Shown here in pieces: positions 1,991 to 37,535 of a stretch of 64,000 bases of DNA (its first letter is position 1; each line of letters opens with the position of its first letter). The notes beneath the pieces are model-generated. The model was not told the DNA's origin, did not search any database, and saw only the letters and a program-made list of their open reading frames with translations. The stretch covers positions 2,750,815-2,814,814 of the forward strand of contig OZ244775.1 of assembly GCA_965219505.1 (NCBI GenBank), written 5' to 3'. The position numbers were made by a program, and so were the translations under genes. The DNA comes from Chloroflexota bacterium (GTDB lineage: Bacteria > Chloroflexota > UBA11872 > VXOZ01).

Positions 1991-1998
1991 TTACGGTC

Positions 1999-9449: not shown

Positions 9450-9512
9450 GCACTAAGGGAATACGTGGGATAAAGTTGCTGAGGAGCGCTTTTCCTCACT
9501 ATTGCGAATTGA

Positions 9513-9548: not shown

Positions 9549-9792
9549 TAGTTGTGGGGGTGCGGAGGTGAGCAGATGGCAGGCATTAGTGTTGTATGGA
9601 CAAGCGAGCCGCGCGGCAAGGAAGGGCAGTCCTCGGCGATTGCCCTTCCCTCCTCTTGCTTCAAGGTGGGTTCGATCCCTGTACCTGATAGCCCGTCAGA
9701 ACGGGAGATATCGCGGTTTTAGCACCCAGTATCGTGTGTGGCCGAACGGCGCTGTGGGATAGCGGCCGGATCGCCTTGAGAGGCAGTGACGA

Positions 9793-10815: not shown

Positions 10816-10956
10816 CCACTGCTGCGTCCAGACGCAGGACTCCTAAGTCCAAGCATAGCATACCGATATGCTTCTTCCCTTGACAGCAAGCCGTGAATAC
10901 GCTGTACTGTAGCCAAGTTTCGTCTTGCGCATGTTGAAATTTTGGGAGGATTTGCG

Positions 10957-12003
10957 ATGACAGACAACGGCAAGCTTGGCGTAGGTGTGGTCGGCATCGG
11001 CTGGGTCTCGCACCAGCACATTGACACTCTGGTCAAGAATCCCCACACGGAAGTGGTCGGTCTCTGCAGCGCCAGCCGCGAAAACGCGGAGAACGCCAAG
11101 GAAGAGCACGGGCTCGCCAACGCCCACGTCTACACCGATTACGAGCAGATGATCAAGCAGGACAACCTGGACATGGTCTACATTTGCTCCACCAACGAGA
11201 AGCACGTGCCGCAGGTGCTGGCAGCGGCGGACGCCGGTAAGCACATGTTGATCGAGAAGCCCGCCGCGCTCAATTGGGAAGACATGAAAGCCATTGTGGC
11301 AGCGGTGGACAAAGCCGGCGTGGTGGCCTGCGAGGGCTTCGAATTGCACTGGAGCCCTTACTTCCTGATCGTGCACAAACTCATCAAGGCCAACGCCTTC
11401 GGTAACATCTTCTACGGCGAGTGCGACTATTTCAGCGCCAACTGGCCCCAGTGGTACGTCGGTTACCCCTGGGTGAAGACTCGTGAGCAAGGCGGTTCCG
11501 CGCTGGCGGCCGCGGGCTGTCACGCGGTAGACGCGCTGCTGCAATTCATGCCCGGCGAGGTCGATCACGTGGTGGGCCATTGGGGCAACTTCACGAAGAC
11601 CTTCGACTGGGAAGGCACCGTGCTCAGCGTCATTAGCTACAAGGACGGCCGCATCGGCAAGGTCGGCTGCATCCTGGAGGGTAACAACCCCTATTCGTTC
11701 AACGTCCGCTTGCATGGCGACCGCGGCACGTTGGTGGGCAATAAGTTTCATTCGGAGACCCTGATCGGCGAGCGCATGACCGAGCAGACCGATTGGGCGA
11801 CCTTCGAGACGATCATGCCGGATACGCCTGAGGTCGCGCACCACCCCTTCCAGCCGCAGACGGACCACATCATCGACTGCATCCTGAACAACAAGAAGCC
11901 GGAAGTGGATGTCCACGACGCATTGAAGATCGACGAGGTCATCTTCGCGTTAGAGCGGTCGGCCGGTATGGGCGGCACGCCCGTCAAGCTGCCGTTGGAG
12001 TAA
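10957..12003 (+). CDS. Gfo/Idh/MocA-family oxidoreductase
   Basis: GVVGIGWVSHQH Rossmann motif, MLIEKPAA motif, C-terminal alpha/beta domain. RBS GGGAGGA 7 nt upstream of ATG at 10957. Confidence 0.85.
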   Translation: MTDNGKLGVGVVGIGWVSHQHIDTLVKNPHTEVVGLCSASRENAENAKEEHGLANAHVYTDYEQMIKQDNLDMVYICSTNEKHVPQVLAAADAGKHMLIEKPAALNWEDMKAIVAAVDKAGVVACEGFELHWSPYFLIVHKLIKANAFGNIFYGECDYFSANWPQWYVGYPWVKTREQGGSALAAAGCHAVDALLQFMPGEVDHVVGHWGNFTKTFDWEGTVLSVISYKDGRIGKVGCILEGNNPYSFNVRLHGDRGTLVGNKFHSETLIGERMTEQTDWATFETIMPDTPEVAHHPFQPQTDHIIDCILNNKKPEVDVHDALKIDEVIFALERSAGMGGTPVKLPLE

Positions 12004-12536
12004 GACCTGCAGATTGGCGACCGATCCGAGAATTAAAGGTACGGTCGGCCCATTGACAGCCAGCCCCGCGATGGAGCGGGAAACGGGAACGCTACTAGCA
12101 AGCCCTTCCGTTGCATGGCACGGGGCGCTGAAGACGGTCTTGGAATGCGCCGGAGAGATGCAGATTCTCCGGCGCATTCACTATGCTCAGGGGACTGGGT
12201 TTGGACACAAGTTGTACCAGGCCCCCACAAGGCTTGAAACAATGTGCTCAGACATTTCGCTGACAAATGCCAAGAAATGGCGCTACGGATTGGTGCGCTC
12301 TGCCAAGGAGATGAGCATGTCATTCCGAACGGAGCGCAGCGCAGTGAGGAATCTGGAGTCCATGCCACACTTGGTCCAATAGGTCTAGCACTTTAGATTC
12401 CTCACCCCGTTCGGAATGACACAAATCGCCGGCAGTAACTGGCAGAGAGGTGCTTATATTAGGTAGTCATGCAGCAGTAACTATCTTGTAGTCTTCCTGA
12501 ATCCAATCCATTCACTCACAAGAATTCCAACCAGTC

Positions 12537-13115
12537 ATGACACTCTTTTCTTCTCGGCGCGAGCGCCGCCTTTGGCTGTGGGTGTTGGTTGTCATGGCGG
12601 CGATCTATGCCACCCTGGGATTGGCGCAAACGCTGGCTGAAACATTGCGAGAGCGGGGCCTGCTGGATATCTCCATCGGTCTCTTTCTCCTCAGTATGTT
12701 CCTTGTGGGGGCAACCGTCCTCACGCAGGGGCTGAAGGTGCGGCCGGGCGGAGCGGAAGTCGCCGTGGTCGTCGGTGTCGCCACCGCCTACCTGCTGGTA
12801 CTCACACGAATGACGGTCCCGACCGAGCGCTCGCACCTAATCGAGTACGGCGTGGTGGGCGTCCTCATTTACGAGGCGCTCACGGAGCGTGCGAGCCAAG
12901 GCCGTCACGTGCCGCTGCCGCCCCTGCTCGCCGTCCTGGCAACCGCAGTACTGGGCGTGCTCGACGAAAGCATCCAGGCGATATTACCCAACCGCGTCTT
13001 CGATCCGGTAGACATCCTGTTTAATCTGCTCGCCGGTACCATGGCCGTAGGCGCCAGCGTAGCGCTGGCGTGGGCGCGGCGGTGGACTCGGTTACAGCGG
13101 TTGGGGTTGAAATGA
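12537..13115 (+). CDS. VanZ-like family membrane protein
   Basis: 192 aa, 4-5 TM helices, conserved HLIEYGVVGVL and LDESIQAILPNRVFDPVDILFNLLG motifs of the VanZ family. Confidence 0.6.
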   Translation: MTLFSSRRERRLWLWVLVVMAAIYATLGLAQTLAETLRERGLLDISIGLFLLSMFLVGATVLTQGLKVRPGGAEVAVVVGVATAYLLVLTRMTVPTERSHLIEYGVVGVLIYEALTERASQGRHVPLPPLLAVLATAVLGVLDESIQAILPNRVFDPVDILFNLLAGTMAVGASVALAWARRWTRLQRLGLK

Positions 13116-13413
13116 ACAAGCCCAAGTGGCGGGCAGCGCACGTGTCCCCGCCAACCTACTCACGAAGGATAGGGTACAATTTTGCCTGAAGAATCCTTAA
13201 CTCTGTAGGCCTTTCCATTGGAGGTCTCGTGTCCCTTCAGTTCATCCTCACTGAATGTTGCCCTCACCCCCGTATCAAGTACGGGGCAGGCTCTGGCCCT
13301 CTCCCTCGGGAGAGGGGACAGTCTCGGAGCCTGGCCATCTCCCTAAACCAAATGGAGATGGTACTTGGTGCAGAAAAAGCGGCGTGAACCAAAAGCGAGA
13401 GAGAGTTGATCGT

Positions 13414-15003
13414 ATGAGCATCGATACCGGTCTGCTGGCACACTGGAAATTCAACGGCGATTGCCGGGACTCTTCCGACAGCGGCAATCACGGCACGAAT
13501 CGCGGCGCCGATCTCGCGGCTGTGGGTCGGGACGGCAATCCCTATGGCGCAGCGGGCTTTGACGGCCGTACCGCATATGTAGAGGTTCCTATCAGCGACT
13601 CGCTGGCTCTCGTCGGCGGTGACTTCACGCTCTCCGCCTGGGTGGAACTGCCGCCCGACGGCGCCAACCTACACGGCGACATCCTCAGCAAATTCGATCC
13701 TGCCACCCGCACCGGCCTGAACTTCGGTACCTTGAATTACGCCGGAGTCACCGCTGCCCAGGCCCACCATCGCAATCTGCACTTTGGCATCGACGACGGC
13801 CTGCAAGAGCCGTCATGGAGCGACTGCGGCCGACCGGGCAACAATCTGCGCGTCTACTCCCTGGCCGTCTACAACGGCGACCTCTACACCGGCACCTTCG
13901 AATGGGGCGCGGACGAGGCCGGGCACGTGTACCGCTACGCGGGCGGCCAGACGTGGGAAGACTGCGGCAGCCCCGATCAAAGCAATACCGTGGCATCGCT
14001 GGCCGTGTTCAAAGGTGACCTCTATGCCGGTACTTCCCGCTATAAGGCCGGTGGCTCCGCGCTGGAGGATTCGCCGAACAAGCATCCCGGCGGCGCTATT
14101 TACCGCTACACGGGAGATGCCACTTGGGAGTACTGCGGCCGTCTCGAAGGCGCCGACTCCATTGCCGGTATGGCCGTGTACAACGGCGAACTCTACGCCA
14201 TTCCGCTGTACAGCCAGGGCGTCTTTCGCTACGTGGGCGGACAAGAGTGGGAATACTGCGGCACGCCCGGCCGCCGCATGATGGCGATCACCGTCTACAA
14301 GGGACACCTCTATGGCGCGGGCAACGAGGGCGGCGGCGTCTTTCGTTACGACGGCGGCACCCAGTGGACGCCCTGCGGCTTCCAGGAGGGAGTCACCCAG
14401 GTATACTCGTTCGCCGCCTATCAGGGCGAGCTCTACGTCGGCACCTGGCCTAACGGTACCGTCTTCCGTTGGGACGGCAAGGAAACGTGGGAGAGCGTGG
14501 GCCGCCTGGAAGAAGAGAAGGAAGTCATGGCAATGGCGGTCTACAACGGCAAGCTCTACGCGGGCACGTTGCCATTGGCAAACGTCTATCGCTACGAGGG
14601 CGGTACCACCTGGACCAATACGGGCCAATTGGACACCACGCCGGACGTGAAATACCGGCGGGTGTGGTCGATGGCGGTTTTTGAGGGTAAGCTCTTCGGC
14701 GGCACGCTGCCGTCCGGCCGGGTCTATTCCCTGCATGCCGGCGCCAACGTGACGTACGATTTCGCACTAGGCGTAGGTTGGCGCCATCTTGCCGCCGTGC
14801 GGGAAGGGAATCATCTCAGGCTCTACGTCGACGGCGTGCAGGTGGCAGAATCCGCCGACACAGCGCATGTTCCTACCTCCATTGCAAACGACCGTCCGCT
14901 GCGCATTGGGTTCGGCCAGCACGACCACTTCAACGGCAGCATGGCCGACGTGCGCGTGCACGGCCGCGCCCTTAACTCCGACGATATCGCTGCGCTCCAG
15001 TAG
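13414..15003 (+). CDS. Secreted LamG/concanavalin-A-like lectin-fold protein whose jelly-roll is split by seven ~45-aa beta-propeller-like repeats
   Basis: N-terminus (LLAHWKFNGD...GFDGRTAYVEV...DFTLSAWV) and C-terminus (WRHLAAVREGNHLRLYVDGVQVAES...MADVRVHGRALN) together form one LamG_3-type domain. Between them sit seven repeats of h-x-x-h-A-V-Y-x-G-x-L-Y-x-G-T...V-F/Y-R-Y-x-G-G-x-x-W. ATG at 13414 with GAGAGAGAG RBS. Confidence 0.6.
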   Translation: MSIDTGLLAHWKFNGDCRDSSDSGNHGTNRGADLAAVGRDGNPYGAAGFDGRTAYVEVPISDSLALVGGDFTLSAWVELPPDGANLHGDILSKFDPATRTGLNFGTLNYAGVTAAQAHHRNLHFGIDDGLQEPSWSDCGRPGNNLRVYSLAVYNGDLYTGTFEWGADEAGHVYRYAGGQTWEDCGSPDQSNTVASLAVFKGDLYAGTSRYKAGGSALEDSPNKHPGGAIYRYTGDATWEYCGRLEGADSIAGMAVYNGELYAIPLYSQGVFRYVGGQEWEYCGTPGRRMMAITVYKGHLYGAGNEGGGVFRYDGGTQWTPCGFQEGVTQVYSFAAYQGELYVGTWPNGTVFRWDGKETWESVGRLEEEKEVMAMAVYNGKLYAGTLPLANVYRYEGGTTWTNTGQLDTTPDVKYRRVWSMAVFEGKLFGGTLPSGRVYSLHAGANVTYDFALGVGWRHLAAVREGNHLRLYVDGVQVAESADTAHVPTSIANDRPLRIGFGQHDHFNGSMADVRVHGRALNSDDIAALQ

Positions 15004-15257
15004 GCCACATAGACGCCTGCTACTTTCAAGACCCTCGTTGAAATCCGCTCTTATAGAGCGGGTTTCTCCATTTGCACCCTTGACTACACACCGTTAATCG
15101 CGCTAGAATCCGTTTCAAGCCTTCTAGGAGTCGTCAAGGCAGGATTGAACTTCTGGAGAGGTGGAAGTGAGTGCCGCACGGTCGACAGCCACCCCATCTC
15201 GCAAGGCAGTGGTGTGTGTTCGGAATAACGCCTACCAGGCAGGAGGTATCGGTTCTG

Positions 15258-16658
15258 ATGAAGAGTCGTACTGAATTCCACGTTACACGGCGAAGTATGC
15301 TCGCAGGCACCGGAGCTGCGGCGGGAGCGGTGCTCTTTGCCGCGTGTGCAGAAGGCGGGATGGCGCCCGCTACAGGGGAAGCGCCTGCGTCCGAGGACAT
15401 GAAGAAGTCAGAAGAAATGCCGATGGAAGAGATGCTGCCCGTGAACTTCTGGGCCATCGACATGGGCGGCAGCAACTGGGTGCAGGGCATCGGCGAGGAA
15501 ATTGTCGCCGAGTTCCACGAGGCCAACCCTGGCGAAGAGGTCAACGTGATCGTCACCACCTACGGTGACACCATCAACAAGCTGCCGACCGTGGTCGCCG
15601 GCGGCATCCCGCCCGACATCTCCTACATCGACGCCTATTTGCCGAAAGACTTTGGGGTGCGCGGCATTGCCGCAGACATCACGAATTATGTCAAGTCATC
15701 GACCGTAATCGACGCGGATGACTACTACCCCCGCGTCGTTTACGACTCGACCTACCGCGGCCACTGGTTCGGGTTGCCCTGGGCGCCCACGGTCTTTACC
15801 TACTTTTACAACAAAGACGTCTTCGTGGAAGTGGGTCTGGATCCAGACGCGGGACCCTCGAATTGGGACGAGCTCGACGCGGCAATCCAGCAAACGCTTA
15901 GGAAAGAGGGCGACAACATCGAGCGACTCGGCTTCTGGTACGGCAACAGCTCCCTGGTCTGGTGGCTGGTGCCCTTCTGGCAGCAGGGCGGCCGCCTGCT
16001 CAGTGACGATGAGTTGACGTCCACCATCGACAACGAGACGATGGTTACCGCGTTCGACTTGACGTTGCGTTTCTTCGACCTCCAGGGCGGCCTGGACGCG
16101 ATGAACGAATTTAGGGGCGATGAGCGGCATCAACACCTCTTCTCCACCGGCCGCTGCGCCATGTGGACCGACGTGATGAACATCACCCGCTTCGCGCAGT
16201 ATGAGGAGAACTTCGCCAAGATCAACGTCGGGGTGGACACGTACCCGGTGGCCGAGGGCGGCTCGCCCGCGGCGTATCGCGGCGGCGGCGCGCACCTGAT
16301 GCCCGAGGGTTCCAACAACCCGGACGGCGCGTTCAAGTTCCTCGAGTGGCTCTTCCTGGAGCCCAACGACCGTCGCTTCAACGACGTGCGCGACAGTCTG
16401 CCGGCCCGCCGTTCGGTGGCCCAAAGCGCCGAATTCACGCAGGGCGACCCGCTGCGCATCCAAGGCGCCCGCGAGATGGACGGCGCCCAGTGGGTGGTGA
16501 GCGCCCCCGGCGGACGCAAGATCATCGGCATCCACGTGCGGATGGCAAGCTCCATCTGGAAGCGCGAGAAGACCGTGCCGGAAGCGCTCGCCGACGGCAA
16601 CACGCAGGTGCAGCAGGCGCTGGACGAGGCGTTGGAAAACTCAGTCGTCGATTTCTAG
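15258..16658 (+). CDS. ABC transporter substrate-binding lipoprotein (family 1), paralog of 8052-9449
   Basis: MKSRTEFHVTRRSMLAGTGAAAGAVLFAACAEG signal with AGGAGG RBS. Shares YRGHxFGLPW and FYNxD..EVGLDP blocks with the first SBP. Confidence 0.8.
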   Translation: MKSRTEFHVTRRSMLAGTGAAAGAVLFAACAEGGMAPATGEAPASEDMKKSEEMPMEEMLPVNFWAIDMGGSNWVQGIGEEIVAEFHEANPGEEVNVIVTTYGDTINKLPTVVAGGIPPDISYIDAYLPKDFGVRGIAADITNYVKSSTVIDADDYYPRVVYDSTYRGHWFGLPWAPTVFTYFYNKDVFVEVGLDPDAGPSNWDELDAAIQQTLRKEGDNIERLGFWYGNSSLVWWLVPFWQQGGRLLSDDELTSTIDNETMVTAFDLTLRFFDLQGGLDAMNEFRGDERHQHLFSTGRCAMWTDVMNITRFAQYEENFAKINVGVDTYPVAEGGSPAAYRGGGAHLMPEGSNNPDGAFKFLEWLFLEPNDRRFNDVRDSLPARRSVAQSAEFTQGDPLRIQGAREMDGAQWVVSAPGGRKIIGIHVRMASSIWKREKTVPEALADGNTQVQQALDEALENSVVDF

Positions 16659-16689
16659 CCCGCTAGAGCTCTGCAAACGCACTTTGCGC

Positions 16690-16727
16690 AATTCGCACGC
16701 GTGGGAAGTCCCACGCGTGCGTTTGCT
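16690..16727 (+). terminator. Terminator-like perfect palindrome GCACGCGTGGGA-AGT-CCCACGCGTGC
   Basis: 12-bp perfect stem immediately downstream of the SBP stop, followed by GTTTGCTT. Confidence 0.4.
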
Positions 16728-16936
16728 TAAGGTAGGCTATTCTCAATCAACGATTGGCCTGCTGGCCCCAGCACCAATAGAAAGCAATTCCCTTAGTGCA
16801 CCCACCTCATTCGTCCACTGGCGGTACAGCTTCGCATGATCTTTTAGACCTTCAAACTTGCAAACTGGAGGTAATTCGCTATCCTTAGTATAGTATATAT
16901 AGCGAATATTCCCTGCAGCGAATACTAATATCCTTC

Positions 16937-18340
16937 ATGAGCACTTCTGCACTCACGCTTGCCCCGGTCGAAGCCTTGTGTGAAGAGGACGTAGCGCAGC
17001 TCTGGCAGGCGTGCCCTTGGGGCGCAACACTCCTCCCCACTACGGCCGGCGAGCGGATTCAGGTGGTCTATCCGGGACGCCGCAATCTAGGCCCTGGGCC
17101 GGACTTCCTCGATGCCATCATCGCGTTGGACGGCCGCAGGCTGCGCTACGGTCACATAGAAGTACATTCCGCCGCCTCTGCTTGGCGCACGCACGGTCAC
17201 GCGTCCGATCCGGCCTACCACAACGTCATGCTCCACGTGGTGTGGGAAGACGACGGGCCGATTGGAGGCGGGCCGCTGCGCACGCTGGCGCTGGCGTCGT
17301 ACTTTCCTGACGGTTTGCCGGAACAGTATGTGGCGCAGCAACTGCCGTCGTTCCAGCCTTGCGCAGACCTCCACACCAAGTCCGACGCCATGACCGTCGG
17401 CATGCTCTTCGCGACGTTGGGCGAACGGCGCATGCGCAAGAAAGCGGCGCAGATGCTGGCTGCCATCGAACAAACTGGGCCGGAGCAGGCGCTCTATGCA
17501 ACTCTCCTCGATGCGCTCGGCTACAGTCAAAACCGGGAGCCATTCCGCCAACTCAGTGAGGCCCTGCCCTGGTCGGTGGTGGCGGCAAGCTTGGGCGGAA
17601 AGGCCGCTGCGGCTCTGCACGGCGAAGCGCTCTTCCTCGGCGCAGCGGGGCTGCTGCCCTCCCAACGCGACACTGCCACGCGCACGGGCACGGCATGCCG
17701 TGCCCCTACCGCTCACGATCGGGCATATGTACGGGAACTTGAGACGCTGTGGCAGCAGTTTCACTTAGAACCGGCGGTACCCACTACGGCCTGGGTGCGC
17801 GGCGGCGTGCGCCCCGTGAATGCCCCCGCGCGGCGCGTGGCAGCGGCGGGTCACCTCTGCGCCCGGCTTGCGGAGACGGGACCGGTGCAATTCTGCCTAG
17901 CATTCCGTGAAGAATTGGATCAGCCGCAGTTACGCCAACAGATGGTTAATGCGTTCGCGCTACCGGCGTCTTGCTCACGCTATTGGGCCTCTCGTTGTGA
18001 CTTCGGGGTCCCGTTGCGCGGCGCGCCACAGAGCCTCATAGGCGCGGAACGCGCCCGTGAAATTCTGATCAACGTGTTGCTGCCGTTCATGTTCGCTCTC
18101 GGCGAGCACACCGGCGACTCCGGCGTATCCGACTGGGCCGTCGCCTGCTTGCGTCATGCGCCGGCCGGCGGCATGAACCGACTCATCCGGAGCATGGGTG
18201 ACGACGTATTCGGCTTGCCGACAAAATACGTGCCCATGACTGCCGCTCGCCACCAGGGCATACTGCACATTTACCATGCATGGTGTCGGGAGAAGCGCTG
18301 CGACTCTTGTGCCGTGGGGCAAATGCTGGCGGAACGGTAG
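16937..18340 (+). CDS. DUF2851-family protein
   Basis: 467 aa. N-terminal ...VVYPGRRNLGPGPDFLDAII...HIEVH block matches the DUF2851 family as I remember it. Confidence 0.5.
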   Translation: MSTSALTLAPVEALCEEDVAQLWQACPWGATLLPTTAGERIQVVYPGRRNLGPGPDFLDAIIALDGRRLRYGHIEVHSAASAWRTHGHASDPAYHNVMLHVVWEDDGPIGGGPLRTLALASYFPDGLPEQYVAQQLPSFQPCADLHTKSDAMTVGMLFATLGERRMRKKAAQMLAAIEQTGPEQALYATLLDALGYSQNREPFRQLSEALPWSVVAASLGGKAAAALHGEALFLGAAGLLPSQRDTATRTGTACRAPTAHDRAYVRELETLWQQFHLEPAVPTTAWVRGGVRPVNAPARRVAAAGHLCARLAETGPVQFCLAFREELDQPQLRQQMVNAFALPASCSRYWASRCDFGVPLRGAPQSLIGAERAREILINVLLPFMFALGEHTGDSGVSDWAVACLRHAPAGGMNRLIRSMGDDVFGLPTKYVPMTAARHQGILHIYHAWCREKRCDSCAVGQMLAER

Positions 18341-18540
18341 CAGCGGTTGGAGGGAACTCCTTCACTTGAGCTCCTCGTTCGCTCTCCGATGCGGAGCTTC
18401 CCTCGAAACTCTTCACGGGCAAGCCTATTGAGCACGCGAAGATGGATTCCGGCTTCCGCCGGAATGACGGCCCCCCGAGGCCGGCCCACCCGTAGCCGAC
18501 CATGTTTGTCCTGACGCGAATGAGGTCTTGTCTACTTGGT

Positions 18541-19536
18541 TTATCCGTGCAAGAGCACGCGCTCGCCGCTCTCTGCCGCCTGATAGATTCCCTGCACGAT
18601 TTCCACGGCCCGCTTGCCGTCCTCGCCAGTGACGAGCGGCGCGCGCGATTCCCGGATGCTGGCCACAAACTCGCCGTCCTCGCGTATGAACTGGCTGCGG
18701 TCGCGGGGGAACGTCATTGTTTCCCACTCCTGGTCCTCCGCACCCGCTACCTTGAGGTGCCGCCAGGTCGCGATCTCCATGGCGCCGTTTGAACCCGTCA
18801 CCTCGGCGCGGCAACGGCCCATCGTGGGCGCCGCAATCAACGAGATTTCCATGGTCGCCGTAGCGCCGTTCGCGAATTCGAGATGCGCCACCCCGTGGTC
18901 CTCCCCCTCGGTACGCGCGCCGTAGTGGCCGATGTTGGCGGTGATCGCCGTAACCTCCGCTCCGATCCACCAGCGCAACCGGTCGGCGCTGTGCACGCCG
19001 TTGTCCATGAACACACCGCCGCCAGCTAGGGCACGCACACCGCGCCAGCCCAAGTCCTTGGTGCGAGTAGCGCCCATAATGGAATCGTGGATGTGGAGCA
19101 CGTCGCCGATGGCCCCCTCACGTAACAATTCCAGCGCCCGCACATTTTCTAACATGAACCGGTGCGTATGGCCCACCATGAGGTTCACGTTAGCTTTCCT
19201 GCAGGCGGCGATGATGGTGTCGCACTCTTCCACCGTCACCCCCAGCGGCTTTTCGCAGAGCACGTGCTTGCCGGCCTGCGCCGCAGCGATCGCGGCTTCA
19301 CCGTGCAGCGCATGGGGCAGACAGATTATGACCGCATCTACCGCCGAGTTGTCCAGAACGGCGCGGTAGTCAGTATCGACCTGCGCCACGTCGTGCGCAG
19401 CCGCAAACGCGCGCACGGCTGCTTCATTCACGTCCGCCGCAGCCACGATCCGCGCCTGGGGAACAGATGCCAACCCGCGCGCGTGCGACTGCGCTATGCC
19501 TCCTGTACCCGCTAAGCCGATGTTCACCATATCCAT
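18541..19536 (-). CDS. Gfo/Idh/MocA-family oxidoreductase
   Basis: Start at MDMVNIGLAGTGGIAQSH (AGAGGAG RBS). CEKPLGVTVEE motif and C-terminal domain. The 27 extra upstream codons in the ORF track lack an RBS. Confidence 0.85.
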   Translation of the reverse strand: MDMVNIGLAGTGGIAQSHARGLASVPQARIVAAADVNEAAVRAFAAAHDVAQVDTDYRAVLDNSAVDAVIICLPHALHGEAAIAAAQAGKHVLCEKPLGVTVEECDTIIAACRKANVNLMVGHTHRFMLENVRALELLREGAIGDVLHIHDSIMGATRTKDLGWRGVRALAGGGVFMDNGVHSADRLRWWIGAEVTAITANIGHYGARTEGEDHGVAHLEFANGATATMEISLIAAPTMGRCRAEVTGSNGAMEIATWRHLKVAGAEDQEWETMTFPRDRSQFIREDGEFVASIRESRAPLVTGEDGKRAVEIVQGIYQAAESGERVLLHG

Positions 19537-19747
19537 ATACACCGCTCCTCTCTTGTTAGTCCATATCCCGCGCCACAACCAACGCTGGAGAGTACAAACT
19601 ATGCGGCAGGTGCGCAATCAACGCAAACATGCGCCACCGGTCACTTCCTTCGCACTCTGTCGTTTCATTCTATACGCACTCCCTGTACGCCTGCACCGCA
19701 TGGTATACTGGAACCGTCTTACTGGCGTATACCGTATGCCGCCACTA

Positions 19748-19850
19748 GGGCCGCTAGGGGAGCCGCATGGCTGAGAGATTCTGCTTGCGAGCAGGGCAAC
19801 CCTTAGAACCTGAACTGGATCATCCCAGCGGAGGGAAGCGGCAGAACCTG
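19748..19850 (+). promoter_or_regulatory. TPP (THI-box) riboswitch in the leader of the thiG operon
   Basis: Contains the THI-element core ...GGGGAGCC..GCUGAGAGAUUCUG...ACCCUUAGAACCUGAACUGGAUCAUCCCAGCGGAGGGAAGCGG. The CUGAGA box and ACCYUUGAACCUGAUCUGGAUAAUGCCAGCGUAGGGAA-type 3' half sit ~120 nt upstream of thiG. Confidence 0.8.
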
Positions 19851-19975
19851 AAGACACTGCCGCAAACCGCTCTCCTCACTGTGAAGCGGTTTCTTGTATT
19901 TTGCGGGGAAGAGAGGGTGCGAGTGGCAGGCAGTCCCCTTCTCATCTACCCGCACCATGTGGAAAAGGAACGACA

Positions 19976-20752
19976 ATGACAGACGCGCTTGAGATAGCGG
20001 GGAAGCAATTCACGTCGCGGCTGATGATCGGCACGGGCAAGTACCGCACGCCTGAGGAAATGATTCACGCTATCGAGGCGTCGGGTGCCGAGATCATCAC
20101 GGTGGCGATACGGCGCCTCGACCTCAGCAATCCGGCGCAAAAGACCATCCTCGACCACATTGATTGGAACCATTACACTATCCTGCCGAATACGGCCGGC
20201 GCGCGCACCGCGGACGAGGCCGTCGTTACGGCCAAGCTGGCCCGTGAATTGACCGGGTCGGACTGGGTCAAGCTCGAGGTACAGCCGGATCCGGACTCGC
20301 TCCTGCCGGACCCTGTGGATACGCTCCATGCCGCCGAGGCGCTCGTCCATGACGGCTTTGTGGTACTGCCGTACATTCACGCCGATCCAATCTTGGCGCG
20401 GCGCTTGGAAGACGTGGGCTGCGCGACCGTGATGCCCCTCGGCTCGCCGATTGGTTCCGGCCAAGGCATCTTTACGCGGGAAGAAATCGAACTAATCGTC
20501 GAGCAGGCCAACGTACCCGTCGTTGTGGACGCCGGGATCGGTGTGCCGTCCGAAGCCTCCCAGTCACTGGAGATCGGGGCAGACGCCGTGCTCATCAACA
20601 CGGCAATTGCCCGCGCCGAAGACCCGGTACTCATGGCGGAAGGCTTCCGTCTCGGTGTAGAAGCCGGCCGCAAAGCTTACCTTGCCGGACGCATCGCGCA
20701 GCAGAAGTTCGCCAGCCCCAGCAGTCCGGTGGCAGGCGTGGTGCACGCCTAG
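19976..20752 (+). CDS. thiG: Thiazole synthase
   Basis: [23 protein letters not shown]... typical ThiG N-terminus. (beta/alpha)8 fold, conserved Lys region. Confidence 0.9.
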
Positions 20753-20772
20753 CACGACTCGTCTCACGCCGC

Positions 20773-21489
20773 ATGAAACCCCAACTGCCATACCCCTGCC
20801 TAACGCTGATCACGCGTCTCAGCCCACCTAAGCGCGTTGCGCTGCAGGAAACGGGCCCCGCACTGCGACCCGGCTTCCCTATGCATACACGGAATCCGCT
20901 AGCGAGCACGCTCATACAGCGAGTCCGGGAAGGGATGGAGGGCGGCGTACACGTCGTACAGTTGCGGGAGAAAGAGTCATCCGCCAAGGACCTTTACACC
21001 CTCGCACAGCAATTGCGGCACTTGACCGCAGATCGCGCGCTCTTTCTCGTCAACGACCGCATCGACGTTGCTCTCGCCGTCGGCGCGGATGGCGTACACT
21101 TGCCTGAGGACGGCCTGCCGGTCGCTGCAGCGCGCCGGTTGCTGGGTGAGGACAAACTCGTCGGCTGTTCAGTGCATAACGTCGCCAGCGCCCTGCAATG
21201 TGCGCAGGCCGGCGCGGACTTTGTGCACGTCGGCACACTGTATGCGACGGACTCCAAGCCGGGGCGCGCACCGGCCGGGCCTCAGTTGGTGCGTGACGTG
21301 GCGGCGGCAGTCGACATTCCCGTTATCGGGGTGGGAGGCATCTCGGCGCAGAACGCGTCAACAGTCATGACAGCCGGCGCTCACGGCGTGGCCGTAATCA
21401 GCGCCCTGCTCGACGCTCCCGATACGTCCGAGGCAGCACATCATCTGATCAGAGCCCTTAACGGTCAGACACAGGTGCAACCGCAATGA
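20773..21489 (+). CDS. thiE: Thiamine-phosphate synthase
   Basis: LTLITR (LYLIT-like) motif, HVVQLREKE, VNDRIDVALAVGADGVHL, GVGGI motifs of ThiE. Stop overlaps the next start (ATGA). Confidence 0.85.
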   Translation: MKPQLPYPCLTLITRLSPPKRVALQETGPALRPGFPMHTRNPLASTLIQRVREGMEGGVHVVQLREKESSAKDLYTLAQQLRHLTADRALFLVNDRIDVALAVGADGVHLPEDGLPVAAARRLLGEDKLVGCSVHNVASALQCAQAGADFVHVGTLYATDSKPGRAPAGPQLVRDVAAAVDIPVIGVGGISAQNASTVMTAGAHGVAVISALLDAPDTSEAAHHLIRALNGQTQVQPQ

Positions 21490-21860
21490 CGGCGGATGAG
21501 CGAATCCCCCACACTGAAGAGGAACAACCGCAGACGGCGCGCATCCGTATCAGGGTGAATGGGGAAGACCGGCGGCTGCCTGCACGTACGGCACTTGCTA
21601 CCTTTCTCAAAGCGCAAGACGTGCCGGCGCAGTTCGTCGCCGTGGCCGTGAACAACGAAGTAGTCCGCCGCGCCGACCACGCGCGCGTCATGCTCCAAGA
21701 TGGCGACGTCGTGGAGATCGTCCGCATGGTCGGCGGAGGCTGCGGTCGGCAGGACAATGTTCTTTCTGCCCCGGCTGCCGCGCATAGCAGTCCCGGCCCG
21801 CGTGCTCAGAGTGAAGACCAGCGTATTGACCGGCAGAAAGCGATCGCACGTTGTCTCTGA
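21486..21860 (+). CDS. thiS: Sulfur-carrier protein ThiS with a ~40-residue extension after the Gly-Gly-Gly terminus
   Basis: Translationally coupled (ATGA) to thiE. Residues ~22-88 (IRIRVNGEDRRL...QDGDVVEIVRMVGGG) form a canonical ThiS/MoaD beta-grasp ending in GGG. The reading frame then continues 41 codons (CGRQDNVL...) and overlaps the thiO start. Confidence 0.6.
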   Translation: MTADERIPHTEEEQPQTARIRIRVNGEDRRLPARTALATFLKAQDVPAQFVAVAVNNEVVRRADHARVMLQDGDVVEIVRMVGGGCGRQDNVLSAPAAAHSSPGPRAQSEDQRIDRQKAIARCL

Positions 21861-22966
21861 CCACAGAGGTTGCCATCGTCGGCGGCGGCATCATCGGCTG
21901 TGCGCTCGCCTACACGCTGGCAAAGGCCGGTGTGAGGGTAGCCGTGTTCGAGAAAGAGCGGGTGGGCGGCCAGGCCCGCATCGCCGCGGCCGGTATTCTG
22001 GGCTCCGGTGTGGAGGGAGACCGCGAAGACCACGTCTTCAATCTGGCCGCGCAATCAGCCCGACTCTATCCGGACTTCACGGCCGAACTCGAAGCCGCCA
22101 CCGGCCTGGATGCTACCTACACGCGTTCCGGCGCGCTCTCGGTCGTGTTTGGCGAGAAGCAAGCGGACTTTCTCTCTGGGCAGGCTAAGGCACTTGCCGA
22201 GCGGGGTCAGCGCGTCGCCTGGCTTGATGCCGAAGCGCTACGCCGCGCAGAGCCGCAGCTCAGCACAGCCGCGCGCGGCGCCGTACTCTTTCAAGACGAT
22301 GCCCACGTGTACGCGCCCCAACTCATGCATGTTCTGACACTGGCGGCCGTGGCCCAGGGTGTGACAATACACGAGTACACCCCCGTGCACGGCTTCCTCA
22401 CCGCTGGTGACCGGGTCACCGGCGTGCAATCTGCCGCAGGCCCGGTGTCCGCCGAACACGTCGTTATCGCCGCCGGGGCGTGGAGCCGCTTGCTCGGCGA
22501 TAATCTTAACATTGACCTCCCATTGAAACCGACACGGGGTCAGGTAATGGTGCTGGAAACCTATGACCGCCCGTTGCAGCGCGTCGTCTTTGGCGCAGGC
22601 GGGTACCTGGCGCCAAAGCAGGACGGGCGTATCGTCGTTGGCGCTACGGAAGAGGACGCGGGGTTCGAGCGCGAGAATACCCCCGGAGGCGTGGCCTATC
22701 TCGTCAAGGTGCTGCAAAAGCTCGCGCCTAATCTGGCCGACGCGCGGGTGCATCATTTCGGCGTTGGACTCCGGCCCACGCCGGCCGACGGACTGCCGCT
22801 GCTCGGTCCGGTCGCGCACAGGCCGGGCCTCTGGGTCGCCGCCGGTCACCACCGCAACGGCATCCTGCTCGCCCCCATCACCGCTCAACTCATGTGCAAT
22901 GCGCTTTGCAGCGGCGACCTCGCGCCGCTGCAGCCCTTCTCTCCCGATCGCTTTGCCGCGCAGTGA
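21851..22966 (+). CDS. thiO: Glycine oxidase (FAD-dependent)
   Basis: TTG start. VAIVGGGIIGCALAY dinucleotide-binding motif, DAO family, located in the thiamine operon. Confidence 0.8.
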   Translation: MSLTTEVAIVGGGIIGCALAYTLAKAGVRVAVFEKERVGGQARIAAAGILGSGVEGDREDHVFNLAAQSARLYPDFTAELEAATGLDATYTRSGALSVVFGEKQADFLSGQAKALAERGQRVAWLDAEALRRAEPQLSTAARGAVLFQDDAHVYAPQLMHVLTLAAVAQGVTIHEYTPVHGFLTAGDRVTGVQSAAGPVSAEHVVIAAGAWSRLLGDNLNIDLPLKPTRGQVMVLETYDRPLQRVVFGAGGYLAPKQDGRIVVGATEEDAGFERENTPGGVAYLVKVLQKLAPNLADARVHHFGVGLRPTPADGLPLLGPVAHRPGLWVAAGHHRNGILLAPITAQLMCNALCSGDLAPLQPFSPDRFAAQ

Positions 22967-23405
22967 GCCGCAGCGCGCTTCGGATTCCAGAAGGGAGTAC
23001 ACTAAGGAGGTGACAGTATGCTGTCAATTCAATAACCATGGTGGGGTTCGAAATCTCCCTCGTATCGAAAAGTCCGACATCTTGGGGCTGGGATATTTCT
23101 TCCTCCACAGCGGCCAGATCCATCTCAATAGTCTATAAGCGACTTGAGCACAATCGCTGTAACATCGCCCTAGAAACACAGGCCTATCGTATTGCAGCAC
23201 CACTCTTGGCCGTGCGATTCCTGGTAGATATATATGGTGCCATCAAATAACATCATGTTTAGCTCGTGTTCAAGAAGTAAAAGTGCCACCATGGCAATCG
23301 TCGAGGCCTATGGCATGCATGTTTGGCGTGAATGCGAGCTACATGCCGATAAAAGATGGGTCTTGCATTGACACTATTGCCGCAGAATTGTGTAGGACGA
23401 GTCTG

Positions 23406-26021
23406 ATGGGGTCTTGCCTAAAGAGAATTGTAGCTGGCCTGATTGCACTAGGGAGTGCGCTTTTCTTGATGGGATCTTCTCCGGGCTGTGGAGGCCCTCC
23501 ACAATTCCCCGATCCCCCAGGTAGACCAGAGATTGTTTGGTCCCATGATGGACAACACATCGTCTTCTCGCCAACATATCTCGGTATCTTTGTAGTCGAT
23601 ATTGCAGGTACGCGCTTTTGGTCAATACCAGAAAACACCGAACTTGGATCCGGGAGCTATCCCGGCAACTTTTCTCCAGCGCTCTCTCCCAATGGATCGA
23701 AGCTGGCGTATGTAACGTTTTGGGAATACGGCAACGCAGAGATAATGACCGCGAATTTCGATGGCACCGATGTGCGGCGGCTGACCAATGACGAGGCGCT
23801 CGACACGAACCCCTCCTGGTCTCCTGATGGAAGACAGATTGCTTTCACAACGGGCCACTATCGCGCGGCGAATCTTGCAGTAATGGACGCCGACGGGTCG
23901 AACGTCCGGCTGCTCGCCCCTTCGATCAAACTTGAAGGACATCCCGATGGACAACCGCCAGTGTGGTCACCCGACGGGAATTGGATTGCGTTTGTGGGCC
24001 AGGAGGGGAGTTACGAGGAAGGCTATCGTCAAGTACTCTACACCGTGCGCCCGGATGGGTCTGACCTCACTGAACTGGGAGAACTCGCCCTTTGGTGGTG
24101 GAGTAAACACGAGACTAACAGAAAAATTCTTCGAGGGTCTCCAACTTCCTTACCTTTCAATAAGGCTACCGTGTGGTGGTGGTCGCCGGACGGCAAGTGG
24201 ATAACATTCGTTGGCGCTGATGAGTTGGGCGAGCAAGACAAAGTACGTCGCGACCTGCTTTACACAGTCCATCCAAATGGGTCAGGCTTCAACAGATTGG
24301 CTGAGATTCATAGTCTGCCTGTGTGGTCGCCTGACAGCAGTCGCCTTGCCTTTATTGCAGCCGAAGTGGATGCAGATGGGGAGGAGCAATACGCGCTCTA
24401 TACAGTTGAGGCTAACGGATTGGGACTAACAAGACTGGCCACAATGGGCTACACGCCGCAGTGGTACGACAATGCTACTGGTCCCTTATGGGAATCCTAT
24501 CCAAAACCAGCTTGGTCACCCGACGGAACTTGGCTGGCATTCGCGAAGGACACAGGACCCGAAAGCGGCATCTATATGGCCCGGGCCGACGGCACTGAAA
24601 TTCGAACCGTCATCGTTGGACATGGCAGTCCGGTCTCTTGGTCTGCAGACGGTAGCGAATTGTTTATTGGCGGCATGCAGCACGCGGTCCGAACAGATGG
24701 CACGGCTCTACGCAAGTTAATTCCCGGTGGGGTGAGTAACCTAACGTCTTGGTCGCCCAGCGGATCCTACCTTGCCGTTCTCCAAGACCCACAGTTAGGC
24801 GGTTATGGGAGTGAGGCAAAGGTTCAGGGATTCCTATACGTGGCAGAACCAGACGAACCTGAAATGGGAAAGCGTGCATTAGTATGGGGAATCCTTGATC
24901 GTCTGGTGACAGAGGCAGAGCACTCTGAGTGGCGAAATGTCGCAGAGAATATCGCAGCGTGTGGCGACGGCTACGTGGTGCCGCAGCCAGAGCGGAACCC
25001 TGGATTAGTACGGGACTGTCAGTCATTGCTACTAAGCCGCGACAGGCTGGCTGGTGAACTCTACCTAAATTGGGGCTCCGCCACCCGAATCACAAACTGG
25101 GCCGCCATAGATATTGGAGGCGATCCGCCCCGGGTAGTGCGCTTGGATATTAGGACAGATGGCGGCATTATTCCTCCTGAAATAGGAGATGTTTCCGGTT
25201 TGGAGGAGATACGATTCTGGGGTTTTCAGGGAACTATCCCGCGAGAACTCGGCAAACTCTCGAATCTTCGGGTACTGGACTTCTACTTCAATTCCCTAGT
25301 CGGTAGCATTCCACCTGAGTTAGGGAATCTCACAAGCTTAGAGAAACTGACATTCGAATGGACTGGTCTGTATGGATATATCCCACCGGAATTAGGTAAT
25401 CTAACTCGATTAGAAGTGTTGCTCATTGAGCATACCGGCATAAATAGCAGCATTCCATCTGAGTTAGGGAATCTCACAAACCTTCAGGAACTGGATCTAA
25501 GGACTGAGGGTCTCTTTGGTAAACTCCCGCCAGAATTGGGACGCCTCGCCAATCTGAAAAAGCTGACCGTGGCTGGCACTAGGGTGAGTGGCAGAATTCC
25601 TTCAGAACTGGGAAACCTCACGAACCTTGTTTCATTGTCACTCGACAGGAATAACCTCAGTGGCCACATACCGCCAGAATTGGGAAACCTTACAAGACTC
25701 ACTGCGCTGACCGCGAGCAATAATGACCTGAGCGGCCACATCCCAAGCGAAATTGGAAACTTATCGGCCCTAAGGGATTTGTCTCTTAGGGAAAACAGTC
25801 TCTCGGGAACTATTCCTCCAGAGTTGGGTGACCTCAGGAATTTGAGAATCTTGTATCTAGACTCAAATGATCTCAGCGGCACATTTCCTCCTGAACTTGG
25901 AAGGCTCGCAAGTTTGGAATGGCTGCGAGTGGGAGGAAACGACTTAGGTGGATGTGTGCCGGAATCGTTGTCCAGCCGCCTGAATAGGATTGACGAGATT
26001 GGGTTAGCAATCTGCAAGTAG
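23406..26021 (+). CDS. Large secreted/lipoprotein with N-terminal TolB-like beta-propeller repeats (SPDG/WSPDG blades) and C-terminal plant-type leucine-rich repeats (about 11 LRRs of consensus LxxLxxLxLxxNxLSGxIPxELGNLTxL)
   Basis: Signal peptide MGSCLKRIVAGLIALGSALFLMGSSPGCGG. At least eight W/SWSPDG-type repeats as in TolB/DPP-IV propellers. A 24-residue LRR array from ~aa 640 to the C-terminus. The region is clearly lower in GC than its flanks. Confidence 0.75.
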   Translation: MGSCLKRIVAGLIALGSALFLMGSSPGCGGPPQFPDPPGRPEIVWSHDGQHIVFSPTYLGIFVVDIAGTRFWSIPENTELGSGSYPGNFSPALSPNGSKLAYVTFWEYGNAEIMTANFDGTDVRRLTNDEALDTNPSWSPDGRQIAFTTGHYRAANLAVMDADGSNVRLLAPSIKLEGHPDGQPPVWSPDGNWIAFVGQEGSYEEGYRQVLYTVRPDGSDLTELGELALWWWSKHETNRKILRGSPTSLPFNKATVWWWSPDGKWITFVGADELGEQDKVRRDLLYTVHPNGSGFNRLAEIHSLPVWSPDSSRLAFIAAEVDADGEEQYALYTVEANGLGLTRLATMGYTPQWYDNATGPLWESYPKPAWSPDGTWLAFAKDTGPESGIYMARADGTEIRTVIVGHGSPVSWSADGSELFIGGMQHAVRTDGTALRKLIPGGVSNLTSWSPSGSYLAVLQDPQLGGYGSEAKVQGFLYVAEPDEPEMGKRALVWGILDRLVTEAEHSEWRNVAENIAACGDGYVVPQPERNPGLVRDCQSLLLSRDRLAGELYLNWGSATRITNWAAIDIGGDPPRVVRLDIRTDGGIIPPEIGDVSGLEEIRFWGFQGTIPRELGKLSNLRVLDFYFNSLVGSIPPELGNLTSLEKLTFEWTGLYGYIPPELGNLTRLEVLLIEHTGINSSIPSELGNLTNLQELDLRTEGLFGKLPPELGRLANLKKLTVAGTRVSGRIPSELGNLTNLVSLSLDRNNLSGHIPPELGNLTRLTALTASNNDLSGHIPSEIGNLSALRDLSLRENSLSGTIPPELGDLRNLRILYLDSNDLSGTFPPELGRLASLEWLRVGGNDLGGCVPESLSSRLNRIDEIGLAICK

Positions 26022-26268
26022 GGCTATTCGTCTATCGCTACATTGACTTGGCGGCGGCTTGAGCAATGCCCGCGCAGAGACTAGCTCGTGCCACTACAGT
26101 TCGGGGTCCATGACCACAAGGCAAGTCACAGACAAAGTGTGACAAATCGACTACCCGTGCAGTTGGGTACGGACATTACGTGTTACCGGATGTAGCAAGC
26201 AAGTTGGCAATGCACGAATTAGCGCTCGTGAAACCACGTCCATGATGGACCTAAACATCAATTAACCG

Positions 26269-27249
26269 ATGCTTTCGAACGACGCACTGGCGCTTGCGCC
26301 GCGGACCGAGTCTGGCGGTCCCAGACTCACCTTTGACTTTCCCGGCCTAGCCATCGGCGTCGCCGAGTACGAGGCGGGCCCAACAGGCTGCACGGTATTC
26401 CAATTCGGCCATAGCGCCGTCGCCGCCGTAGACATTCGCGGCGGGGCGCACGCGACACTCTATACCGAAGCGCTCCAAAACGGTGAAGGCAAGCTGGACG
26501 CAATCTGCCTGGCCGGCGGCTCATTCTACGGCCTGGAAGCCGCGACGGGCGTGGCGGCGGAACTGCTCGCCCAGCGCGGTTATTCCCCTCATTGGGGCAA
26601 CATCGCCTTGGTTTCCGGCGCCATCATCTACGACTACGGCCCGCGCGACAATGCCGTCTATCCGGATAAAGCCCTGGGTCGCGCGGCGCTTAAGGCGGCG
26701 CGACCGGGGACATTTCCGCTGGGCCCACGGGGAGCGGGTCGCTCGGCCACAGTGGGAAAGTGGCTGCAAAAACCCTATCGAAGCGAGCCCGCCGGTCAGG
26801 GCGGCGCGTTCCGTGAAGTCGATGGCGTGAAGGTGGCGGTCTTCACGGTAGTGAACGCCGTTGGCGCCATCCTCGACCGCCAGGGACGGGTCGTGCGCGG
26901 CTCGCTGGACCCGCGTACCGGCGAACGCCCCCGCGTAGCTGACGCGGGACTACCCTCGCCTCCGCACGGCAACACCACTCTCACAGTAGTGGTCACCAAT
27001 CAAATCCTCGGAGGGTGGTCGTTGCGGCAGCTTGCCCGCCACGTCCATACGTCGATGGCACGGGCTATCGAGCCGCTGCATACCATTTCTGATGGCGACG
27101 TGTTATTCGCCGTGACCACCAACGAGATAGCGCAAGGCCAAGGTCTCAACGAGTATGTGCTTGGTGTGCTCGCCTCCGAGACCGCCTGGGACGCGGTGCT
27201 CGCGTCGTTCAGCGGCGATGGCTTGGAGAATCCTGGTGAGAATCTCTAG
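26269..27249 (+). CDS. P1/S58-family peptidase (DmpA-like L-aminopeptidase / Ntn-hydrolase fold)
   Basis: GPTGCTVFQF...AVDIRGGAHATLYTE...LDAICLAGGSFYGLEAATGV blocks match the DmpA/S58 family (TGxT, GGAPGTRE-like, GGSAFGL motifs). Confidence 0.6.
   Translation: MLSNDALALAPRTESGGPRLTFDFPGLAIGVAEYEAGPTGCTVFQFGHSAVAAVDIRGGAHATLYTEALQNGEGKLDAICLAGGSFYGLEAATGVAAELLAQRGYSPHWGNIALVSGAIIYDYGPRDNAVYPDKALGRAALKAARPGTFPLGPRGAGRSATVGKWLQKPYRSEPAGQGGAFREVDGVKVAVFTVVNAVGAILDRQGRVVRGSLDPRTGERPRVADAGLPSPPHGNTTLTVVVTNQILGGWSLRQLARHVHTSMARAIEPLHTISDGDVLFAVTTNEIAQGQGLNEYVLGVLASETAWDAVLASFSGDGLENPGENL

Positions 27250-36572: not shown

Positions 36573-37535
<963 letters not shown>

Follow-up and report, generated by a model that had tools for sequence, protein, structure and literature searches.

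Leucine-rich repeats (LRRs) of the plant-specific (PS) class follow the pattern LxxLxLxxNxL(t/s)GxIPxxLGxLxx over 23 to 25 residues (PMC2946307), and a classical statement from 1998, in the excerpt quoted in PMC2244805, describes them as exclusive to plant extracellular proteins. Plant LRR receptor kinases (LRR-RKs) and receptor-like proteins, such as GSO1, FLS2, MIK2, ERL1, PEPR1, and BRI1, have extracellular ectodomains of 24-residue repeats with this consensus, with cysteine-containing caps and a variable concave face. Exported bacterial LRR proteins, the LRR-class "eukaryotic-like proteins" of sponge symbionts, and PS-type LRRs outside plants are already known. Here we describe a gene in a 64,000-nucleotide stretch of the genome of a Chloroflexota bacterium (contig OZ244775.1, positions 2,750,815 to 2,814,814; here referred to as the window) whose product joins an N-terminal PD40 β-propeller of nine repeats to a capped solenoid of PS-type LRRs. 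This fusion is new, as is its N-terminal LRR cap, for which there is no Pfam model. New in the behavior of the gene are its slot-wise gain, loss, and replacement, its divergence beside conserved flanks, and a persistent deficit of GC at third codon positions (GC3). A literature search on PD40, LRR, and sponges found no description of the fusion, the cap module, or the slot-wise replacement.

We propose, with a probability of roughly 60%, that the PD40-LRR protein is an exported and possibly lipid-anchored binding protein with two modules, which likely serves in the strain-specific recognition of, or adhesion to, host, cell-surface, or matrix molecules and belongs to a hypervariable family that is exchanged at defined slots.

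Architecture of the PD40-LRR protein

The LRR array is made up of 10 phased units of exactly 24 residues, preceded by two to three degenerate turns at amino acids (aa) 571 to 617, and a 72-nucleotide (nt) periodicity runs through the DNA that encodes it. A sequence-only reading of this locus had proposed about 11 consecutive 24-residue LRRs of a plant type. All four Pfam models LRR_14, LRR_1, LRR_4, and LRR_8 match above their cut-offs. The repeat consensus is L(T/S)xLxxLxLxxNxLSGxIPPELGN, in which L1, L4, L7, and P19 are invariant and G16, E21, L22, and G23 nearly so, with N or T at position 12 and S at position 15. In length, consensus, and nearest known structures, the repeats thus correspond to the PS class. 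When the LRR half was compared with all PDB sequences by phmmer, the top 40 or so entries were all plant receptor-kinase ectodomains (GSO1, E = 1e-141; FLS2, E = 2e-130; also MIK2, ERL1, PEPR1, RGFR, HSL1, and BRI1). Likewise, the best 50 Foldseek matches of a full-length AlphaFold2 (AF2) model (mean predicted local distance difference test [pLDDT] score, 84.4; predicted template modeling [pTM] score, 0.75) were all plant LRR-RK ectodomains, and Leptospira LIC proteins, SHOC2, and internalin ranked below these in sequence, fold, and profile comparisons. The plant-type character that had been claimed for the repeats was therefore upheld, and they did not score as ordinary bacterial LRRs only.

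Sequence and model comparisons thus confirm the repeats as PS type, but they do not confirm the protein as a member of the plant ectodomain family. The window LRRs are 21 to 38% identical to plant LRRs and 42 to 51% identical to their best bacterial matches. Unlike the plant ectodomains, the protein stands in a bacterial operon context, starts with a propeller, and has its cysteine pairs at different places. The plant N-cap domain LRRNT_2 (PF08263) was not found at an E value of ≤1 in the whole protein or at an E value of ≤10 in the cap alone, and at the latter threshold no Pfam model of any kind matches the N-cap. By Pfam and repeat register, there is also no transmembrane helix and no kinase domain, and the protein ends 14 residues past the last LRR. 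Across the family, the N-cap follows the consensus NPGLVxDCxTLLxxRDxLAGxxxLNWxxxxPIxxWxGVxV...RVxxLxL with a conserved cysteine pair (Cys519/Cys538), and a second pair belongs to the C-cap (Cys850, inside the last LRR unit, and Cys870). The conservation of both pairs suggests that they form disulfides, and paired cap cysteines in turn suggest an oxidizing extracytoplasmic location.

With an nt identity of only about 49% between them, the individual LRR units are old; since they have diverged this far in DNA, Tandem Repeats Finder reported no repeats in the gene. Their variation is concentrated on one surface. Over the 10 repeats, the concave-face x positions 5, 6, 8, 10, and 11 have entropies of 2.4 to 3.1 bits, and over 78 family members the concave positions have 3.03 bits versus 0.64 bits for the scaffold. 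At these positions, aromatic and charged residues are present in the first five repeats (DFYF, TFEW, LIEH, and DLRTE). At the level of sequence, variability of this kind is what typically marks the face by which an LRR protein binds its ligand, and the concave side may therefore be such a face.

The Leptospira proteins LIC12759, LIC11098, and LIC10831 and the Listeria internalins are exported bacterial LRR proteins that act as host adhesins, and they match the LRR half in the PDB search with E values of 5e-56 to 4e-38. In contrast to the window protein, they lack a propeller, and their repeats are of another class (internalin_H reaches 31 bits, with a cut-off of 1,050).

XopAC is a bacterial protein with plant-type LRRs, and the best NCBIfam LRR matches of the window protein are XopAC, XopAE, and XopL (E = 8e-34 to 2e-17). 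A role as an effector delivered into host cells, like Xanthomonas XopAC/AvrAC, XopL, and XopAE, is nevertheless very unlikely, as the scores lie far below the cut-offs (117 versus 450 bits for XopAC/AvrAC [NF041381], 105 versus 600 bits, and 63 versus 500 bits). The Xop effectors are substrates of type III secretion and carry Fic or E3-ligase domains. The window protein carries neither of these two effector domains but a Sec-type signal peptide together with a propeller; genes for type III secretion were not seen in the window, and the location suggested by the paired cap cysteines also speaks against delivery of this kind. The window does contain a gene for a 450-aa Fic/DOC protein (positions 60616 to 61968, minus strand; GC, 0.51; GC at second codon positions, 0.355), 35 kb from the PD40-LRR gene. 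XopAC is an LRR-Fic fusion, but the Fic gene of the window shows no sign of linkage to the PD40-LRR gene.

The N-terminal half matches Pfam PD40 in six stretches (E = 4e-32) and contains nine WSPDG-type motifs (at aa 45, 93, 138, 187, 259, 307, 370, 412, and 449), in line with the at least eight blades that had been proposed before. Modeled alone by AF2 (pLDDT, 85; pTM, 0.87), it shows about nine three- to four-stranded sheets as assigned by DSSP. Its best bacterial homologues are 47 to 50% identical to the window protein.

PD40 motifs and the propeller fold are also common to TolB and to the N-domains of S9/DPP-IV and Tricorn peptidases, and the propeller gives partial matches to both groups. 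It could thus be a housekeeping part of the envelope, either as a TolB-like component of Tol-Pal or as the N-domain of an S9/DPP-IV-type protease. TolB has six blades. The window protein, in contrast, has nine repeats and lacks both the TolB N-domain and a peptidase domain. A global structural match is missing as well; with the propeller model, Foldseek returned generic matches of low template modeling (TM) score only (such as TolB, S9/DPP-IV N-domains, and LRP6; TM, 0.27 to 0.47). The TolB model TIGR02800 scores 120 bits against a cut-off of 343, with its best stretch at profile positions 198 to 345, which covers the propeller only, and instead of tol-pal genes the neighbors are thiG/E/S/O and a Peptidase_S58 gene. 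For S9/DPP-IV peptidases, the similarity is of the DPPIV_N type only, and Pfam finds no α/β-hydrolase catalytic domain. Moreover, the PD40-LRR gene is absent from close relatives, and hence it is not a housekeeping gene. On the basis of scores, context, the missing catalytic domain, and absence in relatives, we regard a TolB-like or peptidase role as excluded.

The open reading frame (ORF) is intact and could start at GTG 23283 or at ATG 23406. The ATG start agrees with the N termini of homologues and gives a protein one residue longer than the 870 aa stated in the sequence-only reading. P0001, from an independent 17.8-kb ENA contig, is identical to it in sequence, and the neighbors of its gene are the same. 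In the sequence, AGGA can be read about 10 to 13 nt upstream of the ATG; a simple consensus scan found no sigma-70-like site in the leader, and a scan for promoters and terminators gave no match beyond shuffle expectation. The export signal that had been claimed is present, and N termini resembling signal peptides occur in nearly all of 78 family members. In the AF2 model, aa 2 to 23 form a helix, and Cys28 is a possible lipid-anchor site; a lipobox that conforms to the rule is found in 26 of the 78 members, including the nearest relatives, P0003 and P0004. With the signal peptides, the cap cysteine pairs, and a nearby DsbB gene in the genome, the features fit a protein that would be extracytoplasmic, as the plant ectodomains are.

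The thiO-S58 slot and the PD40-LRR family

The PD40-LRR gene lies between thiO, the last gene of a thiG-thiE-thiS-thiO operon, and a Peptidase_S58 gene (Table 1). More than 30 clusters contain orthologs of the S58 gene (85 to 92% identity), and these orthologs were used as an entry to the syntenic regions of related genomes. In the closest of them, L085, homology to the window stops at position 22972, past the thiO stop codon, and resumes at position 26248. The slot is empty in L085 and L086 and is filled by a GT1 glycosyltransferase gene in L083 and L084, and the PD40-LRR gene is therefore a strain-specific accessory insertion, which agrees with the acquired gene that had been suspected here.

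Table 1. Features at the PD40-LRR locus and states of the thiO-S58 slot in related genomes
Feature	Position	Strand	Basis or remarks
thiO-type FAD oxidase (DAO family), left anchor	21851..22966	+	Pfam; synteny in L083 to L086
AT-rich noncoding leader (about 440 nt)	22967..23405	+	Composition profile; GC about 0.47 to 0.52
Strain-specific 3,275-bp segment	22973..26247	+	blastn versus L085; replaces the 383-bp thiO-S58 spacer of L085
PD40-LRR gene	23406..26021	+	871 aa plus stop; ORF calling, Pfam, homologue search
Predicted signal peptide, aa 1 to 28	23406..23489	+	n-region MGSCLKR, hydrophobic core, SSPGC with Cys28
PD40 β-propeller, nine WSPDG-type repeats, aa about 40 to 502	23523..24911	+	Pfam, motif positions, AF2
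Helical linker, LRR N-cap, and degenerate first turns, aa 503 to 617	24912..25256	+	Family consensus, invariant columns; motif NPGLVxDCxxLLxxRDxLAGxxxLNWxxxxxIxxWxxIxIG..RVxxLxI
Ten regular 24-residue PS-type LRRs, aa 618 to 857	25257..25976	+	Register, entropy, 72-nt periodicity, PDB matches
C-cap tail, aa 858 to 871	25977..26018	+	Family consensus NxLxGCxPxxL...GLxxC
Peptidase_S58 (P1/DmpA-type) gene, right anchor	26269..27249	+	Pfam
thiO-S58 slot in L085			383-bp spacer, empty; flanks 95 to 97% nt identity
thiO-S58 slot in L086			411-bp spacer, empty; 74 to 81% nt identity
thiO-S58 slot in L083 and L084			GT1 glycosyltransferase; 75 to 83% nt identity

Beside the insert, the 5' end of the S58 gene has been remodeled (positions 26242 to 26268). 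The start region of the relatives (ATGTCAGACCAAGAC...) is present but contains an in-frame TAA, and the window gene instead has its start codon 27 nt downstream, an ATG that corresponds to CTG in the relatives. A further observation concerns an element resembling repetitive extragenic palindromic (REP) sequences (GTCATTCCGAGCG...), which occurs five times in the window (at 4775, 12319, 12408, 27277, and 34037), compared with an expectation of 0.49. Elements of the GTCATTCCGAGCG type are also found in L086 (3177 to 3213 and 7784 to 7815), where a large palindrome takes up the empty thiO-S58 spacer and contains one of these elements in inverted orientation. Such palindromic elements between genes are possible markers of variable slots.

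Further slots are occupied by members of the same family. L082 and L083 belong to a single contig with 85 to 95% DNA identity to the window over its first 17 kb, and L082 encodes a 46%-identical paralog, P0004 (9521 to 12168), between SBP_bac_1 and GFO_IDH genes. At the corresponding place, the window (9450 to 10874) has an unrelated ORF of 340 aa with normal GC content (9793 to 10815, minus strand), for which neither Pfam nor PADLOC gave a match. In three genomes, a PD40-LRR gene occupies a conserved slot in the order DUF3604, PD40-LRR, PNPase, and DapB. At this DUF3604-pnp slot, the family proteins are only 42 to 54% identical, whereas the flanking DUF3604, PNPase, and DapB proteins are 81 to 91% identical. 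Apart from its own copy, P0001, the window allele has no relative above about 54% identity among 5.8 billion clusters. Taken together, these comparisons indicate that the family changes, by divergence or by replacement, at a far higher rate than the surrounding genes.

Identity between the window and the L082/L083 contig is itself mosaic, falling from about 95% at nt level (682 to 7244) to 77 to 83% (15459 to 22971), which suggests recombination among co-occurring strains. Two other contigs deserve mention in this context. On L089 (742 kb), at least nine paralogous genes are clustered in tandem at 4368 to 21966, comprising PD40-only, LRR-only, fn3, and PD40-LRR genes. On L084, a related 3.59-Mb chromosome that derives from the sample of the P0001 contig, an rve-type integrase or insertion sequence (IS) gene that is missing from the window lies between DUF2851 and GFO_IDH (655 to 1665).

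The sequence-only reading had called such repeats rare in bacteria, and this did not hold. Homologues were searched in the above-mentioned 5.8 billion clusters, and of the best-scoring 120 clusters, which were examined, about 80 contain the PD40-LRR fusion, with 27 to 46% BLASTP identity to the window protein; pairwise identities to the closest family members in a MAFFT alignment top out at 54 to 57%. All homologues with a name come from Chloroflexota/Chloroflexi metagenome-assembled genomes (MAGs), so that the BLASTP taxonomy points to the same phylum and essentially away from an origin outside it. A scan of GTDB genomes with the family alignment keyed on generic WSPDG patterns, and 77 of 80 loci among the matches listed were PD40-only proteins from many phyla; the genomes among these matches that aligned over both domains were L002 to L004, which belong to Chloroflexota or Dehalococcoidia.

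The N-cap reaches further than the fusion. An exhaustive phmmer scan with aa 505 to 600 (nt 24918 to 25205) against 1.84 billion representatives of 50%-identity clusters found the module in 2,698 clusters at an E value of ≤1e-3 and in 1,030 at an E value of ≤1e-10. Some of its carriers are giant proteins in which the module occurs up to 16 times; the carriers that were scanned (among P0266 to P0413) are LRR arrays, two of them with an N-terminal Wzy_C-like (O-antigen-ligase-like) membrane domain. L004 contributes a 2,363-aa Dehalococcoidia protein (7442 to 14533) in which capped PS-type LRR modules of two kinds, with the caps NAGLVSDC... and DRAALVALYNATxGxxW..., are combined with a PD40 propeller and further domains, and this architecture indicates that the capped LRR module is reused in many contexts. 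Given the Chloroflexota host and the 2,698 clusters, the classical restriction of PS-type LRRs to plants is outdated: uncultured bacteria contain the "plant-specific" class in abundance, along with a bacterial cap for which Pfam has no model.

Possible role and habitat

In the mechanism that we propose, the nine-repeat propeller and the solenoid, the latter capped by putative disulfides, would act as two modules of one surface protein. The solenoid would present its concave face as a variable, ligand-contacting surface on a scaffold (GxIPxELGNL) that stays nearly invariant. Family members would occupy intergenic slots between housekeeping genes and be gained, lost, or swapped among close relatives, most plausibly by homologous recombination via the conserved flanks, and the copy between thiO and the S58 gene would be one such insertion. 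Binding specificity would consequently differ between strains, and the protein would count as an LRR-class eukaryotic-like protein. The surface adhesin or host-interaction protein suggested in the sequence-only reading is thus a reasonable candidate role. Eukaryotic-like LRR proteins are often named as candidate mediators of sponge-microbe symbiosis, and the PD40-LRR locus offers a concrete, defined family among them.

Circumstantial evidence connects the clade with sponges. In L091, a member of the clade, a gene for a GPP34-cytochrome P450 fusion lies at a distance of 10 kb from the PD40-LRR gene, and this fusion has been reported only in sponge symbionts (PMC11706023). The MAG series that hold homologues also contain Poribacteria and Candidatus Poriferisodalis. 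In previous work, LRR repeat proteins were overrepresented in sponge MAGs, and their genes were among those that symbionts exchange laterally (PMC8163846; also PMC6306507 and PMC3977351). The clade is thus probably sponge associated. Similar to the PD40-LRR protein, the LRR proteins of sponge symbionts carry Pfam LRR domains, vary between strains, and are presumed to act in host interaction. The literature handles them as Pfam counts, whereas the PD40-LRR family is a defined architecture, found here in a genome of putative sponge origin.

A number of observations weigh against the role that we propose. The case for a sponge habitat of the window's own genome is circumstantial, and functional experiments on repeat proteins of sponge symbionts have been reported for ankyrin proteins only (PMC8163846, PMC6306507, and PMC3977351). 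Foldseek returned no close structural neighbor of the propeller that would point to a ligand. With regard to the lipid anchor, the lipoprotein label of the sequence-only reading was not confirmed, as the motif SSPGC has proline at position -2 and falls outside both the PROSITE-type rule and the pattern [LVI][ASTVI][GAS]C, and among the 78 family members the lipobox cysteine is not conserved throughout. With regard to exchange, the borders of the insert show no target-site duplication, no inverted or other bracketing repeats, and no recombination scars, and no integrase, mobility gene, or tRNA was seen at or in the insert, so that the mechanism of transfer is deduced only from the conserved flanks and the mosaic identity.

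Hypervariability and strain-specific presence are also typical of phage-receptor and self/nonself loci, and the other occupant of the slot, a glycosyltransferase gene, is of a kind typical for surface variation. The protein might therefore face other bacteria or phages, as a variable receptor, a decoy, or a kin recognition factor, and have no role toward an animal host. We consider this unlikely: the PD40-LRR protein matches no PADLOC defense family at an E value of ≤0.01, the fusion was not found among the viral contigs and phage genomes searched, and nothing in the analysis positively identified such a role.

Returning to a protein that recognizes host, cell-surface, or matrix molecules, a wider interpretation can be formulated, which we consider rather doubtful. 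The PD40-LRR family might be a bacterial counterpart of the LRR recognition receptors of plants and animals, in which the concave faces would set which sponge molecules or cells are recognized and frequency-dependent selection would maintain the variants, as for O-antigen and capsule loci. The widespread capped PS-LRR module could also share direct ancestry with plant LRR-RK ectodomains, and if so, this would bear on the origin of the latter. Independently of this, the locus is a natural experiment, in which one site is empty in some genomes and occupied by a glycosyltransferase or an LRR gene in others, between flanks that are 75 to 97% identical. Since the family is defined, versions of the slot are available, and the proteins are hypervariable, strain-level host specificity becomes testable.

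Low GC content and the origin of the gene

In 200-nt windows, the PD40-LRR gene and its leader have a GC content of 0.43 to 0.58, versus 0.61 to 0.69 in the flanks, and the GC3 of the gene is 0.525, versus 0.708 ± 0.067 for the 44 other ORFs of the window (z about -2.7). The sequence-only reading was thus correct that the gene and its upstream region are richer in AT than their surroundings, and the GC3 values place the dip at synonymous sites, so that it is not an effect of amino acid composition. From this dip, a foreign origin had been deduced, and it is this conclusion that found no support, because copies of the family at a conserved slot are equally low in GC and the named homologues are Chloroflexota.

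Low GC3 turned out to be a trait of the family within the clade, where five of five PD40-LRR genes examined show it. P0004 has a GC3 of 0.58, compared with 0.72 to 0.87 in most neighboring genes, and the three copies at the DUF3604-pnp slot have z values of -3.35, -4.73, and -1.30. In distant Chloroflexota homologues (L002 to L004), by contrast, GC3 is typical of the host (z = +0.15 to +0.66). Within the L089 cluster, it alternates gene by gene, with 0.56 to 0.64 in PD40-containing genes, 0.64 to 0.66 in fn3 genes, and 0.82 to 0.85 in two LRR-only genes. As copies at a positionally conserved slot are equally low, a recent import cannot be read reliably from low GC. For genome scans, this is a caution, as a GC dip marks the PD40-LRR family even at a conserved site.

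A recent import from outside the phylum, whether from bacteria of low GC content or, in the case of the LRR half, from a plant or alga, would account for the GC3 of 0.525 against 0.708, for the empty slot in the close relative L085, and for the fact that, among solved structures, the LRR half best matches plant receptor kinases. It is quite unlikely all the same. The best homologues of both halves are bacterial, and those with names are Chloroflexota (47 to 50% identity for the propeller and 42 to 51% for the LRRs, compared with 21 to 38% for plant LRRs); the N-cap is not LRRNT_2 but the bacterial module found in 2,698 clusters; the low GC3 is common to the conserved-slot copies of three genomes; and the LRR units, at about 49% nt identity, are old. 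The gene pool from which the family is exchanged is the clade's own and not that of a plant or a distant phylum.

The deficit could instead be intrinsic to a fast-evolving family in which turnover or positive selection, weak selection on codon usage or GC, and AT-biased mutation act together, so that the gene would be "native" to the accessory pool. We regard this as a serious candidate, at somewhat less than even odds. Bacterial mutation is generally AT biased, the five clade genes are all low, three of them at a conserved slot, and in L089 the PD40-containing genes are low where the adjacent LRR-only genes are high, whereas distant Chloroflexota homologues are host typical. Taken alone, however, this explanation leaves the presence/absence polymorphism unaccounted for, and the AT-rich leader moves with the gene, which a cassette transferred from a lower-GC pool would fit equally well. 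The low GC3 may stem either from an external pool of lower-GC alleles or from AT-biased drift in a gene of fast turnover. An intrinsic deficit concerns composition only and is compatible with the role in recognition proposed above.

The window contains a second and stronger low-GC island at 46234 to 48621 (minus strand; GC, 0.47; GC3, 0.47), which encodes a 795-aa protein with weak AAA_16 or ORC-CDC6-like P-loop matches and weak PtuA-like PADLOC hits. Judging by these matches, it may be an accessory or defense gene of the STAND type (signal transduction ATPases with numerous domains). The sole mobility gene seen in the window, an IS110-family transposase gene (DEDD_Tnp_IS110 plus Transposase_20) at 36591 to 37535 on the plus strand, adjoins neither of the two islands.

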